This document shows, piece by piece, positions 4,496 through 18,027 of a stretch of DNA of 46,307 bases (its first letter is position 1; each line of letters opens with the position of its first letter). This DNA is from a virus. Taxonomy: Duplodnaviria > Heunggongvirae > Uroviricota > Caudoviricetes. Both the position numbers and the translations under genes were made by a program. Where the stretch lies: IMG/VR virus record IMGVR_UViG_2721755721_000003, positions 1 to 46,307 of that record; one strand, written 5' to 3'. The notes below the pieces were generated by a model. It did not search any database and was not told the origin of the DNA. It worked only from the letters and a program-made list of their open reading frames with translations.

Positions 4496-4701
4496 TGATT
4501 TATCTCCCATATGCTTTGCGCAAATACAGGTTGGCTATATGAAGATAAGAGTCTCCATGTTGTGCAATGAGGCAGGCTGTTTTATACGATGCCTTATTTT
4601 TCAGGAAAGTCATAACTGAGTTCCATCTGTGAATAAAGGTTGTAACAATCCCCGGCGATAAAACCGTAATAAACGTTCAGGGCATATTTGTTGTTATTGT
4701 G

Positions 4702-5058
4702 CTAATTATTTTCGGCAGCAGCTTTTGCATACTCACATGCAAAATTCAGAATTTCGCTGCCGAGTGTTTTCGTTTCGTGATTACTGGAAATATGTAATAC
4801 CTGTGTTGCATGCAATAAATGATAAACATTTACCGCAAATGAATCAGGCTCCAGACAAATGCCTTCATAATCATCTTGTTGTGAGGTTGTTTCTGTCATT
4901 GCTCCTGAAGTGCATGCGAGCCTGCTTTTGACAATTCTCTTTCCTCTAATCACTATATCGGCAACATCTATTGCCTTTACAACCTCCGGGAGAAGTTCCT
5001 GGTTTGTATAATCAAAGTTATCAACATGGAGAACAGTTATGTTTTCGAACTTTTTCAT
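4702..5058 (-). CDS. Hypothetical protein (118 aa)
   Basis: ATG at 5058 with GAGGAAG RBS; AT-rich context. Confidence 0.55.
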   Translation of the reverse strand: MKKFENITVLHVDNFDYTNQELLPEVVKAIDVADIVIRGKRIVKSRLACTSGAMTETTSQQDDYEGICLEPDSFAVNVYHLLHATQVLHISSNHETKTLGSEILNFACEYAKAAAENN

Positions 5059-5186
5059 GGCTTCCTCAGCTGACTTATATGTTCTGCTATATAGCGAGTC
5101 TCAGAAGTGTTTTCATATTGAGACTGTTTCCGCAATGATTGATAAAAATGTTCGCATGTACCTTGAGGGGCGAAGCGGCGATTATG

Positions 5187-5690
5187 TCACCATTGGTATT
5201 GGTTCTTCCGTAGAAGAGCTTCGCGAGATAAGGAGCAAACTTGTTGAGATGCGTCATGGTGTTGCTGCTCCTCACTTTTTGGTTGCTCCGGAGGAGTAAC
5301 CTCACCAGTTAACAGCCACATCGGATCGCAGCCAAGAATATTTGCCAGTGGGATAAGCATACTGATAGTTGGTTCATACTCTCCGCTCTCCCACTGGATG
5401 ATAATTTCTTCATCGAGATCGAGCAGCCTGGCGAGTTCGGCGGTTGTTAAGCCGCAGGCTTCGCGTTGGGTGCGAAGACGGTTGTTGATTGCAGAATTTT
5501 TGTTCTGTAAAAGCATTGCTGACGATAGCTTTCTGGATATGCTATTTGTCATATCCCATGCCAGTCCTGCGCATGACTCTATATCGCTAGAGAGCGTAGC
5601 ATCAGGTGTTGCTTTTGCTATTAGTGTAATGAGGCTGCCGAGGTTTTTCAGTTCTTCGAGACAGTCAAGAGTTGTAGCTTTATTGATCAT
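5187..5690 (-). CDS. XRE-family HTH protein with about 70-aa N-terminal extension; first gene leftward of the OL-like operator
   Basis: Classic XRE helix-turn-helix (LRTQREACGLTTAELARLLDLDEEIIIQWESGEYEPTISMLIPLANILGCDPMWLLTG); GAGGT RBS before ATG at 5690; sits immediately left of operator-like repeats. Confidence 0.6.
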   Translation of the reverse strand: MINKATTLDCLEELKNLGSLITLIAKATPDATLSSDIESCAGLAWDMTNSISRKLSSAMLLQNKNSAINNRLRTQREACGLTTAELARLLDLDEEIIIQWESGEYEPTISMLIPLANILGCDPMWLLTGEVTPPEQPKSEEQQHHDASQQVCSLSREALLRKNQYQW

Positions 5691-13773: not shown

Positions 13774-14166
13774 ATGCGTGATATTCAGATGGTTCTCGAA
13801 CGCTGGGGAGCATGGGCGGCAAATAATCATGAGAATGTTAGTTGGTCGCCAATTGCTGCGGGGTTTAAAGGCCTCATCCCCTCAAAAGTAAAATTTCGAC
13901 CGCAATGTTGCGATGATGATGGTCTTATCATTAGTTCAGTTATGGCAGTTCTCAAGAAAAAGGAACCATATCAATACCAATTACTGGAAATGTATTATGT
14001 ATATGGGATCACATTACGAGCGTTAGGGGTGAAAATGGGGATATCGCTTAATCAAGTTGTTATTAGATTGCAGAAAGCTGAAGGGTTTGTTGAAGGGTGT
14101 CTGGCAATGCTCGAGGTATCTTTAGAAATGGATTGCTATATGAATCACGAAAATGATTCAAGATAA
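13774..14166 (+). CDS. Q: Late-gene antiterminator Q (phage 82 / QuuD-like family)
   Basis: Begins [20 protein letters not shown]..., which I recognise as the N-terminus of the small Q family of E. coli lambdoid prophages; internal Cys pairs; RBS GGAGAAAG before ATG 13774. Confidence 0.75.
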
Positions 14167-14232
14167 ATGAACAGTTACTAGTTATATTTTACAGTAATCT
14201 CCTGATGATACACGTTCAGCAGGAGGTTATTT

Positions 14233-14850
14233 ATGAATCAAAATGTAAGACACATATTGCTGGATGCAATTGAAAATAAGAAATCTTTAACGGTAATTTA
14301 CTTAGGAGGTAGTCAGCCAGGAACATTGAGAGATATATCTCCGATAAGCATATCAGAAGATAAACTTAGGGCAAGATGCCATAGTACTAATGCTGTAAAG
14401 TTTTTTAATATTGGGAAAATACAACTACCTAGTGACTCGTCCATGATAACTGTGCCATATGGAAGCTTAGAGCTTAAAGTTTATGAGACGATGCAGAGTG
14501 TGTATGAGGACTTTCATAGCCTGTATCCGGAAGGTCGATGGGGAGTTGAATTTAATGATCATGAATTTGCTCTATTTGATTTTTTCAAAAATGGAAAAAG
14601 AAAAAAAACAGCATTTATGGCAATTCAGTTTATGGAAAGACATGAGGATGAAACAAGAACGGAGATAACAATTGATGTCAGTCTATCAGGTGTTGTGATT
14701 TCGGAGGGAGCCAGAACACCTAAAAGACGTCCGTGGGTTGTGACTGGTCCCGGGCGTGGAGAGCTAAGAACTTATTCAACGTTAGACAAAGCTGCTACAG
14801 AGTTTTTTAAGCGACTTTCATTGATGGTATCTATGGCGATTGAAACATAA
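14233..14850 (+). CDS. Uncharacterized 205-aa protein with possible N-terminal WYL-like domain
   Basis: Residues about 15-65 (LTVIYLGGSQPGTLRDISPISISEDKLRARCHSTNAVKFFNIGKI) resemble the WYL-domain pattern; C-terminal half unassigned; AT-rich gene immediately after Q. Confidence 0.55.
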   Translation: MNQNVRHILLDAIENKKSLTVIYLGGSQPGTLRDISPISISEDKLRARCHSTNAVKFFNIGKIQLPSDSSMITVPYGSLELKVYETMQSVYEDFHSLYPEGRWGVEFNDHEFALFDFFKNGKRKKTAFMAIQFMERHEDETRTEITIDVSLSGVVISEGARTPKRRPWVVTGPGRGELRTYSTLDKAATEFFKRLSLMVSMAIET

Positions 14851-14943
14851 GGGATATAAAGATACCGAGGAAATGATTTGTGTTATAACAAAAACCATCT
14901 TAATCTGTTAAGATTGGTCACTCCGTCATACAGCTTAAACCTG

Positions 14944-14961
14944 CCGCCTGGCGGGTTTTTT
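14944..14961 (+). terminator. Weak intrinsic-terminator-like hairpin plus T-run downstream of the 205-aa gene
   Basis: CCGCC-TG-GCGGG followed by TTTTTT at 14956-14961; short stem, low confidence. Confidence 0.3.
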
Positions 14962-15083
14962 ATGACTGAAATCGCGTCAGTACAGTAAACGCGCTGGTGG
15001 CGGTGAATACCTGTCTTTCAGCTTGCTGGCTTTTTCGACAAGAGTTATTGGTGTGTCACGTTAACCGGAAAAGGGAAAAAGAC

Positions 15084-15281
15084 ATGCTAAAACAGCAGGA
15101 TATGACAGAAACCGCCAGAGTGGTGTTTAATGAATTAAGCGTTACCGAACCGGCGACAGTCGGGGAGATTGCGCAGAATACTTACCTTTCACGCGAACGC
15201 TGCCAGTTAATACTGACCCAGCTGGTTATGGCGGGTCTGGCAGACTATCAGTTCGGTTGTTACAGACGCCTTCCGCAGTGA
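15084..15281 (+). CDS. Small putative winged-helix DNA-binding protein (65 aa)
   Basis: ATG 15084 with AAGGGAAAAAG RBS; segment TVGEIAQNTYLSRERCQLILTQLVMAGLA resembles a winged-helix recognition helix. Confidence 0.45.
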   Translation: MLKQQDMTETARVVFNELSVTEPATVGEIAQNTYLSRERCQLILTQLVMAGLADYQFGCYRRLPQ

Positions 15282-16531: not shown

Positions 16532-16603
16532 GGCCCTTTAGCTCAGTGGTGAGAGCGACTCATAATCGCCAGGTCGCTGGTTCAAATCCAGCAAGGGCCA
16601 CCA
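16532..16603 (+). tRNA. tRNA with CAU anticodon (Ile2/Met type, ileZ-like), atypically short
   Basis: Acceptor stem GGCCCTT/AAGGGCC, T-arm GCTGG-TTCAAAT-CCAGC, CCA end, anticodon loop CTCATAA; about 4 nt shorter at the D-arm/anticodon-stem junction than the E. coli tRNA-Ile2 I recall. Confidence 0.6.
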
Positions 16604-16610
16604 TCACAAA

Positions 16611-16690
16611 CCGCCATTAGCTTATCAGGAAGAGCAGACGACACGATAACAGGGTTGTTGGTGCGGGGGCGGGTCCCCGATGGCGGTCCA
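16611..16690 (+). pseudogene. Degenerate tRNA-like element (possible decayed arg tRNA)
   Basis: Perfect 7-bp acceptor-type pairing CCGCCAT/ATGGCGG followed by T-CCA; D-arm-like GCTT...GAGC; no canonical anticodon or T loop found by hand. Confidence 0.3.
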
Positions 16691-16703
16691 TTATCGGTAT
16701 TCA

Positions 16704-16780
16704 GCGTTGTTAGCTCAGCCGGACAGAGCAATTGCCTTCTAAGCAATCGGTCACTGGTTCGAATCCAGTACAGCGCGCCA
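16704..16780 (+). tRNA. tRNA-Arg (anticodon UCU)
   Basis: Canonical cloverleaf: acceptor GCGTTGT/ACAGCGC, D-arm GCTC...GAGC, anticodon stem ATTGC/GCAAT with loop CTTCTAA, T-arm ACTGG-TTCGAAT-CCAGT, encoded CCA. Confidence 0.85.
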
Positions 16781-16914
16781 TATTCATTCTTCCAGATTCC
16801 TTTCGGCAGAGCCTTATACTGAAATATACCTGGCTCAGGATATTGTTGAAAATATTATATGTTTGTCAAAAATAAAAGTTCTGTTAAGTGTTGATTGAGT
16901 GTTTGTTATACGGT

Positions 16915-17244
16915 CTAATGGTTTTTTCAGCATTAAATATTTATCATTCATATGGTGTGGGTAGAGTGAATATTGATGAGGCGTCGGGGTGTTTCATCCT
17001 TAGGCAGCGTATTGATATAGTCAATGCAGAACGAGCAAAGGCCTTCAGCCGTTTGACAGTTTTGTTCTGTACTCCTGATCGTCTTTCGGGAAGAGACGTT
17101 ATTATTCTGAATAGTGATGCTATACAGAGGGTTTGCGATGAGTTCATGGTGGCTAATTCAGAATTATTTGCTCTTGTTCAGGAGTACAACAGAATAGCCA
17201 GGACCTGTGGTATGGATGAACTTCGGATTACTCATCTGGGGTAG
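16915..17244 (+). CDS. Hypothetical ORF in the stx-equivalent slot (about 109 aa), weak
   Basis: Open frame in AT-rich DNA after the tRNAs; no convincing RBS; start uncertain. Confidence 0.25.
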   Translation, partial: LMVFSALNIYHSYGVGRVNIDEASGCFILRQRIDIVNAERAKAFSRLTVLFCTPDRLSGRDVIILNSDAIQRVCDEFMVANSELFALVQEYNRIARTCGMDELRITHLG

Positions 17245-17636
17245 ATACATATCTGGATTATCACCGGTTACGGTAAAAAGTGATTGCTTACTGTTTTTGT
17301 GAATGGCATTGCAGCAGCCGGATAATGTCAGTGCTGGCTGACGGTGTGCTGGTGGCGGGTGTGGTGGTTGCTGCTTTCCCGTTGCTGAAAAAGAAAACGC
17401 CAGACTGTTAGCCGGGTATCAGTTAGCGGGAGAAATTTTTAAATACTTCACAATTCAGGCGGTTGACTGTTGTCTGGTTTGCGGGGAGTTTGTTAAAAGA
17501 AACTGGCATGGTGAATCCCCCTGTGCGGAGGGGCAATCAGCGAGTAGGTATATGGGATAATCGCGGATTCAGGTGCTGGTACTGAATTCACCGGGAGGCA
17601 CCCGGCACCATGCAATGGCACATAGCGCCACTCTCC

Positions 17637-17668
17637 AGCCCCTCTCCGGAGGGGCTGTTTATATTGAT
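17637..17668 (+). terminator. Rho-independent terminator (AGCCCCTC-TCCG-GAGGGGCT followed by T-rich tract)
   Basis: Perfect 8-bp stem with tetraloop at 17637-17656, followed by GTTTATATTGATTTT. Confidence 0.5.
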
Positions 17669-17691: not shown

Positions 17692-18027
17692 TTATGGACT
17701 TTGTTGTTTTAGCCCATAAGGACATATTTGCAGAGTGCAACGGTTATTAAAGCATTCATTCAATACGTTATCTGTATTTGTAGGGCATTCCTGGCTGTTT
17801 TTGATTAAATTCCAGAATGTTTTATTGAATGGTACTACGTTGTAAATGGTTACAGGCAGCACTTTGTTATTGAGCATGATGCCTGTGTGAGTCAGTGTAA
17901 ATATACTTTCAGGAGGTAAGAAAGCATCCGATTGATACCAGATTATTAATTTTATTTTACTCCATATGACTGAAAAAGATATTCCGCATGATGGCTGGAT
18001 AACTGTATCAATCACAATCCACTTCAT
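17692..18027 (-). CDS. Hypothetical ORF (111 aa), Cys-rich C-terminus, weak
   Basis: Minus-strand ORF in the AT-rich slot between the tRNAs and nanS-p; no family recognised. Confidence 0.3.

Follow-up and report, generated by a model that had tools for sequence, protein, structure and literature searches.

A WYL-domain gene without a helix-turn-helix region in the slot between antiterminator Q and its putative binding site in a lambdoid prophage

The gene downstream of Q and its two-domain product

The window analyzed here, the whole 46,307-nucleotide stretch of the IMG/VR virus record IMGVR_UViG_2721755721_000003 (Caudoviricetes), is a complete lambdoid prophage. Some 66–67 bp past the stop codon of its antiterminator gene Q begins an open reading frame (ORF) of 205 amino acids (aa), which public annotations call a "hypothetical protein" or a "WYL domain-containing protein". 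Its product consists of an N-terminal WYL domain and a C-terminal domain (CTD) of no known kind, and it is referred to below as the WYL-CTD protein (Table 1). An initial annotation, made by reading the sequence without database searches, had proposed the ORF as a gene, and it is indeed a real, conserved prophage gene under purifying selection. It matches phrog_8498 from end to end (E 4e-111), and comparison with an Escherichia coli variant about 71–73% identical to it (L003) gives a ratio of nonsynonymous to synonymous divergence (dN/dS) of 0.22. The family comprises 881 cluster representatives in an exhaustive profile search, 552 of them at E < 1e-10, and nearly all members are 185–210 aa long. 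A word-indexed homolog search gave just seven proteins, and a profile scan of genome contigs with a small alignment as the query gave four loci. The stretch that carries the gene has a GC content of 0.34–0.38, compared with 0.50–0.58 on either side. This fall starts inside Q, at about position 13800, and the AT-rich 3′ half of Q from there onward forms one mosaic block together with the WYL gene.

Disrupted copies of the gene were observed at L034, L060, L061 and NZ_CP026723.1 (~1104259–1106612). The lesions include a frameshift, some 0.8–1.2 kb of additional sequence in the interval from Q to the palindrome described below, placed before or within the gene, and interruption of one copy by about 1.6 kb. 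Such copies suggest sporadic inactivation.

A possible WYL-like domain had first been suggested by eye. Taken alone, the window protein scores 16.2 bits against PF13280, under the 21.8-bit gathering cut-off, and a single-sequence search with it against solved structures found no match. Despite this subthreshold Pfam score, the assignment is secure, because the WYL models of PADLOC match the protein (E 1.6e-4), PF13280 is matched by 38 of the 103 aligned family members (E ≤ 0.01; best 4.8e-8), and the family profile recovers the WYL proteins DriD, CapW and BrxR from the solved structures at E about 1e-4. The predicted structure of this part is an Sm-like five-stranded beta-barrel preceded by a helix, which is the WYL fold. 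HMMER aligns the motif I-Y23-L-G-G-S27-Q-P-G-T-L-R33 of the window protein with R-Y-E-G-G-S-T-P-G-R-T-R of DriD, and Y23, S27 and R33 fall on Tyr168, Ser172 and Arg178, respectively. Y23 and R33 are invariant among the 103 aligned sequences; S27 is invariant in a five-sequence alignment and the majority residue in the larger one. In DriD, these three residues hydrogen-bond the phosphates of bound single-stranded DNA (ssDNA), and their mutation abolishes activation (PMC9186387). Because the phosphate-contact residues of DriD are kept, single-stranded nucleic acid is most likely the ligand of the WYL domain in the window protein.

The family differs from the best-characterized WYL proteins in one essential respect. 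Regulators of the winged helix-turn-helix (HTH)-WYL-WCX type, namely DriD, CapW, BrxR and PafBC, share with it the loop Y-x-G-G-S-x-P-G-x-x-R and are associated with phage defense, but they carry an N-terminal HTH, whereas the window protein begins with the WYL domain. No HTH family matched, and the barrel begins at residue 1. Since it has no HTH, the WYL-CTD protein does not belong to this type of DNA-binding transcription factor. WYL domains outside classical transcription factors are also found in WYL1, an accessory protein of Cas13d, and in a bacterial Pif1 helicase; in both, the domain binds single-stranded nucleic acid and has a modulating effect on another activity.

The C-terminal domain is predicted with high confidence to form a seven-stranded sheet with one helix before it and a long C-terminal helix after it. 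The initial annotation had recognized nothing in this part, and broader searches bear this out: no Pfam family matches it in any of the 103 family members, and nothing in PADLOC other than the WYL models matches the protein. Structural alignments to DriD, a regulator of the type that ends in a WCX dimerization domain, go beyond the WYL domain only with a root-mean-square deviation of 13–14 Å. The near-invariant residues of the 103-sequence alignment are G102, W103, K119, G121, P167, A187 and F191, and no catalytic residues are conserved. The nature of this residue set suggests that the domain works by packing or binding rather than by catalysis.

Some family members carry additional parts. An N-terminal membrane helix is present in P0083 and P0136, and P0092 has C-terminal zinc ribbons and membrane helices. 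P0065 and P0150 share a conserved extension of about 170 residues without a family match, which corresponds to phrog_31886.

The slot between Q and the putative late promoter

Downstream of the WYL gene lies a block that keeps the same order in all aligned phages: a variable palindrome of 8–9 bp, CAAAAA, 11 variable bases, and the invariant TGTTAAGAG/T continuing through to a hairpin. Every match to the conserved core on viral contigs was collected and paired with its upstream Q gene, which yielded 97 non-identical sites; the loci concerned are L001–L003, L007, L013–L062, L071–L074 and those from L077 onward. Across these sites, five palindromes correspond to five HTH classes of Q with no exception. 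The palindrome is GTTATAAC for class A, to which the window and its ~73% variant L003 belong, GCGGTCCGC for class B, GCGTACGC for class C, GGAATTCC for class D (phiP27) and GTAATTAC for class E (L125). Sites of one Q class differ widely in spacing, with 3 to 2997 bp separating the Q stop codon from the palindrome. For phages whose Q belongs to an unrelated family, homology starts only at the hairpin. Covariation of this kind makes the palindrome the likely Q-binding element and would place the Q site, and hence the late promoter pR′, downstream of the WYL gene.

The simplest reading of the block is that its promoter-like core is pR′, CAGCTT a candidate pause element and the hairpin the terminator tR′. 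The core could be read as TTGTGT (14878–14883), a 17-bp spacer and TAATCT (14901–14906); nearly all variants keep a TAnnnT hexamer here, and its place between the palindrome and TGTTAAGAG does not shift. An alternative −10 element, TGn-TAAGAT (14906–14914), is also present, and the predicted start lies near 14913–14921. The CAGCTT sequence is −10-like, with A at position 2 and T at position 6, and falls within the predicted initial transcribed region. The hairpin has a 9-bp stem (14937–14945/14950–14958) and a run of six T. The initial annotation had noted a weak hairpin and T-run after the gene; the hairpin is present, but it is stable and conserved rather than weak. The built-in promoter and terminator scan found neither this hairpin nor a promoter, Rfam had no match at 14167–14965, and literature searches returned no specific report in which pR′ had been mapped for this class of Q.

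The closest known arrangement is that of phage 21, whose Q belongs to the same Pfam family (PF06530). There, the Q-binding element lies between the −35 and −10 of pR′, and a −10-like pause element follows the start (PMC6606751); the putative layout in the window matches this. The two also differ, as the element of phage 21 consists of TGAGCA repeated directly at −21 and −13, whereas that of the window type is an 8–9-bp palindrome, and Q of the window type is shorter (123–130 aa) than phage 21 Q.

Table 1. Coordinates of the WYL gene, its domains and the neighboring features
Feature	Position	Strand	Basis or remark
Antiterminator Q, QuuD-type, class A allele	13774..14166	+	PF06530 full length, E 1e-48
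Leader stem-loop with Shine-Dalgarno in 3′ arm	14193..14231	+	Folding versus shuffles, variant folding
WYL-CTD gene, 205 aa	14233..14850	+	phrog_8498 match, family profile search, dN/dS
N-terminal WYL (Sm-like beta-barrel) domain, residues 1–68	14233..14436	+	Profile matches, DriD alignment, predicted fold
C-terminal domain of no known kind, residues 85–205	14485..14847	+	Predicted structure, alignment
Promoter-like core, putative pR′	14878..14914	+	Comparative inference
Palindrome GTTATAAC, putative class A Q-binding element	14882..14889	.	Covariation with Q HTH class
CAGCTT, candidate sigma-dependent pause element	14931..14936	+	Conserved as CA(G/A)CTT; analogy to lambda/phage 21 pR′
Intrinsic-terminator hairpin and T-run, putative tR′	14937..14960	+	Folding, conservation
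TrmB-like winged-helix gene, 65 aa (phrog_331)	15084..15281	+	First gene of conserved downstream block

Comparison with related phages shows that the DNA between Q and the palindrome is exchangeable. The block that begins at about 14880 in the window directly follows the stop codon of Q in PPyecE_EH1910 and PhiR5_1, and the slot is empty in L002, L007, L125 and L161. In phiP27 this position is taken by a T5orf172 protein of 409 aa (L22), and in Stx2a_1447 by two antisense genes. At least 18 unrelated types of cargo were identified, even within a single Q class, with a GC content of 0.31–0.42 and a length of up to 3 kb, mostly antisense to Q (L073, L074, L077, L083, L108, L113, L114, L133, L146, L160, L167, L168, L172, L173, L175, L184, L186 and L189). 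Such presence or absence between conserved flanks, with alternative cargo and deviant base composition, is the pattern of morons and hotspots, and comparison marks the WYL gene as one among many cargoes that alternate in this hotspot between Q and the putative pR′. We did not find this slot described in the literature.

Five of the ten slot cargo proteins tested gave strong PADLOC matches. These are phiP27 L22 (PD-Lambda-1, 2e-89), a GmrSD_N/DUF262 protein encoded with a Dcm methylase (NsnA, 8e-45; PD-T4-2_A, 6e-27), a KAP NTPase (PDC-S20, 2e-176), a further protein (PDC-M53A, 1e-31) and an AAA ATPase adjoining a Dcm methylase (HEC-04, 1e-30). PD-Lambda-1 is reportedly a single-gene defense with a T5orf172 domain that came from a functional screen in E. 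coli. Its homolog in phiP27 occupies the same slot and strand as the WYL gene, between Q and the palindrome/promoter block, and is unrelated to the WYL-CTD protein in sequence and domains.

Accessory genes of lambdoid phages include rexAB and sieB next to cI, and stx, bor and lom in the late region. These, too, are AT-rich cargo, inserted at a constant junction in a mosaic genome, and one distant homolog of the WYL-CTD protein has a rex-like position. The slot of the WYL gene is distinct in being downstream of Q and upstream of the putative pR′, bounded by Q and its likely site. The interval from Q to the palindrome offers a straightforward way to find the putative pR′ and accessory cargo in prophages of the QuuD type, among them Shiga-toxin phages. 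The five pairs of Q and palindrome are also ready for testing how this class of antiterminators reads DNA.

Other cargo of the slot includes an NYN-domain protein and a homolog of the nucleoid protein NA37. A two-gene antisense layout recurs at L173, L167, L189, L074, L175, L184 and L150, in which a soluble protein of 270–350 aa is followed by a protein of 150–190 aa with several predicted membrane helices. At least six versions of this layout occur, apparently unrelated in sequence, and only one of them matches a PADLOC candidate (PDC-M53A).

Expression and possible roles of the protein

Promoter scans did not reveal a convincing conserved promoter for the WYL gene itself; the position-weight scan gave many hits in the AT-rich DNA. 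The 66-nt spacer between Q and the gene is shortened by an 11-bp deletion in the other variant. A leader stem-loop precedes the start codon, with a folding energy of −17.7 kcal/mol (z −4.3) that none of 200 shuffled sequences reached. In the 73% variant, the leader folds at −23 kcal/mol (z −4.75), and one-sided changes preserve the pairing. The Shine-Dalgarno sequence AGGAGG (14221–14226) is contained in the 3′ arm, which ends two bases ahead of the ATG. With this sequence locked in a conserved hairpin, translation of the WYL gene should be throttled on any transcript, and expression would be low. Transcripts of the gene probably arise either as read-through of Q or at weak promoter-like sites that lie within the AT-rich 3′ half of Q, and any such transcript would end at the putative tR′.

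The settings of distant homologs offer a further view of the family. The homolog P0009 is a lone ORF (4693–5268) on the contig L063 (1–10756), bounded by attC-like repeats at 4566–4669 and 5278–5411. This contig contains 14 copies of a repeat of about 120 nt, one between each gene pair, and its array also carries PhdYeFM/ParE, AbiTii, DUF4365, DUF2441 and several acetyltransferase cassettes. L063 is a Vibrio-type chromosomal integron cassette array with P0009 as one of its cassettes, and no integrase was seen on the contig. A second homolog is in a cassette-like array with PIN and Fic genes, a third is directly downstream of a cI-like HTH_3 gene facing a divergent early operon, and a fourth is beside a repressor with an S24 peptidase domain. 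All four are settings where autonomous accessory genes, often defense genes, accumulate.

Based on the location of the gene in the slot and the company kept by its homologs, our best explanation is an anti-phage role in which the sensing of ssDNA triggers a non-enzymatic action, and we place it a little short of an even chance. The protein would be a standalone two-domain protein, with an N-terminal WYL sensor and, C-terminal to it, an alpha/beta domain of a type not described before. The WYL domain would detect single-stranded nucleic acid from an infecting or replicating phage, and the C-terminal domain would then act stoichiometrically, by binding or oligomerizing rather than by catalysis. 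The outcome would be protection of the superinfection-exclusion or abortive-infection type. An accessory or defense role had been suggested at the outset and is still the most plausible reading, given PD-Lambda-1 and the other PADLOC-listed genes in the slot, together with the homologs in cassettes and beside repressors.

Several observations nevertheless weigh against a defense role. Integron cassettes and prophage slots also carry non-defense genes, and known WYL proteins are mostly regulators rather than effectors. The window protein has no recognizable effector domain, and only generic CRISPR-associated WYL models of PADLOC-DB 2.0 match it. A literature search found nothing specific on this protein or on HTH-less WYL proteins. 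The pR′ assignment comes from covariation alone, and both candidate −10 hexamers are imperfect. Finally, unlike most cargo, the gene is co-oriented with Q; it also has no convincing promoter, and its Shine-Dalgarno sequence is sequestered. These three features fit co-transcription with Q in the lytic phase as well as they fit a defense gene expressed in the lysogen.

A broader form of the anti-phage hypothesis can be formulated, although we regard it as somewhat unlikely: WYL-CTD proteins, lacking an HTH, would make up a new kind of immune module consisting of one protein, in which a WYL domain that senses ssDNA would drive an effector or oligomerization domain that is non-enzymatic and new. 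The family would have spread as integron cassettes and prophage cargo, and in E. coli it would ride an undescribed defense hotspot whose cargo is locked between Q and a palindromic Q site, different in architecture from the direct-repeat site of phage 21. WYL domains are known mainly as sensors in transcription factors that switch defense operons on. A large family that travels alone as a cassette, with the sensor joined directly to an unassigned domain, would reveal the effects that a WYL signal can have where there is no promoter for it to control. It could also add a single-gene system to the defense catalogue.

The strongest competitor, which we consider unlikely, is a factor serving the phage itself, co-transcribed with Q after induction, which would dampen host responses by binding ssDNA or a different ligand of WYL domains. 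Such a factor could be a sponge that keeps host defense operons of the CapW/BrxR type repressed, or it could protect or organize phage replication intermediates. The gene lies on the same strand as Q, 66 nt downstream and without a conserved promoter, as this hypothesis expects. The retained ssDNA-contact residues and the lack of catalytic residues suit a stoichiometric binder, and without an HTH the protein would not itself be a classical WYL transcription factor. However, homologs reside in bacteria as integron cassettes and in the repressor-operon position, where lysogen-expressed genes lie, and the slot otherwise carries defense genes. The timing of expression separates this hypothesis from the anti-phage role.

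The initial annotation had placed the gene within a constitutive pR′–tR′ leader and had proposed from that position that it could be expressed in the lysogen. Under this model, pR′ would lie between Q and the ORF, the hairpin at 14937–14960 would be tR′, and the gene would be expressed in every lysogen. In lambda, pR′ is close behind Q, and a moderate promoter-like site, AAGATA-17-TATATT, ends at 14188 in the window. Nonetheless, the model is improbable. The Q-class-specific palindrome and the promoter-like core are found 3′ of the gene and abut Q when the slot is empty, and the 66-nt spacer, with its deletion in the variant, contains no conserved promoter. Most cargo in this position runs antisense, with lengths of up to 3 kb, which is incompatible with a pR′ leader. 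Because the gene lies between Q and the putative pR′, constitutive expression in the lysogen cannot be deduced from pR′, and that argument is probably wrong.

The constant company of the gene and class A Q could suggest that the protein is a co-factor of this Q, linking late transcription to a signal in the form of nucleic acid, for example from replication or DNA damage. Among 5426 E. coli genomes, the 3′ half of Q and the WYL gene occur in an identical set (22/22), and those of the L003-type variant occur together in the same 52 genomes (52/52). The gene follows class A Q in 49 of 49 close viral loci. At the 30 non-identical class A sites, Q was never without it, and neither an empty slot nor other cargo was seen. 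Synonymous divergence (dS) between the window and L003 is equal for Q and the gene (0.81 and 0.83), and the flanks are 90–97% identical. The linkage is strict because the gene sits between Q and the site that Q must recognize. Cargo flanked by a regulator and its recognition site is not easily recombined away and is thus inherited with the Q allele. Moreover, Q of the other classes works whether the slot is empty or holds unrelated cargo, with 8 different cargo lengths in class B and 23 in class C, and distant homologs occur without any Q. A functional tie between Q and the gene was largely rejected on these grounds, and we judge the co-factor model highly improbable. The exclusivity of class A Q is still odd, and age, selection or functional coupling may be its cause.

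A decaying or functionless remnant, to which the disrupted copies might point, is scarcely credible in view of the dN/dS, the conserved length across the family representatives and the confidently predicted fold.

Further features of the window

ARAGORN identified two tRNA genes at 16532–16780 (anticodon CAT; Arg TCT), about 100 nt apart. A near-identical prophage in strain 3059 has three annotated tRNAs (Ile, Arg, Arg), and the gap at 16604–16703 in the window may hold a degenerate or missed tRNA. A strong, full-length match to the Rfam small-RNA family STnc100 (RF02076, 132 bits) with a GC-rich terminator at its end was found at 17477–17666, downstream of the tRNA genes and upstream of an esterase gene and the lysis genes. 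STnc100 was considered as a pR′ leader and rejected, because it lies downstream of both the tRNA genes and the position of stx in relatives. StxS was likewise discarded as a model for a short pR′ RNA, its transcript being 258 nt long and its promoter region different. Two AT-rich ORFs, at 16888–17244 (+; 118 aa) and 17692–18027 (−; 111 aa), occupy the stx position of related phages and are probably additional cargo.
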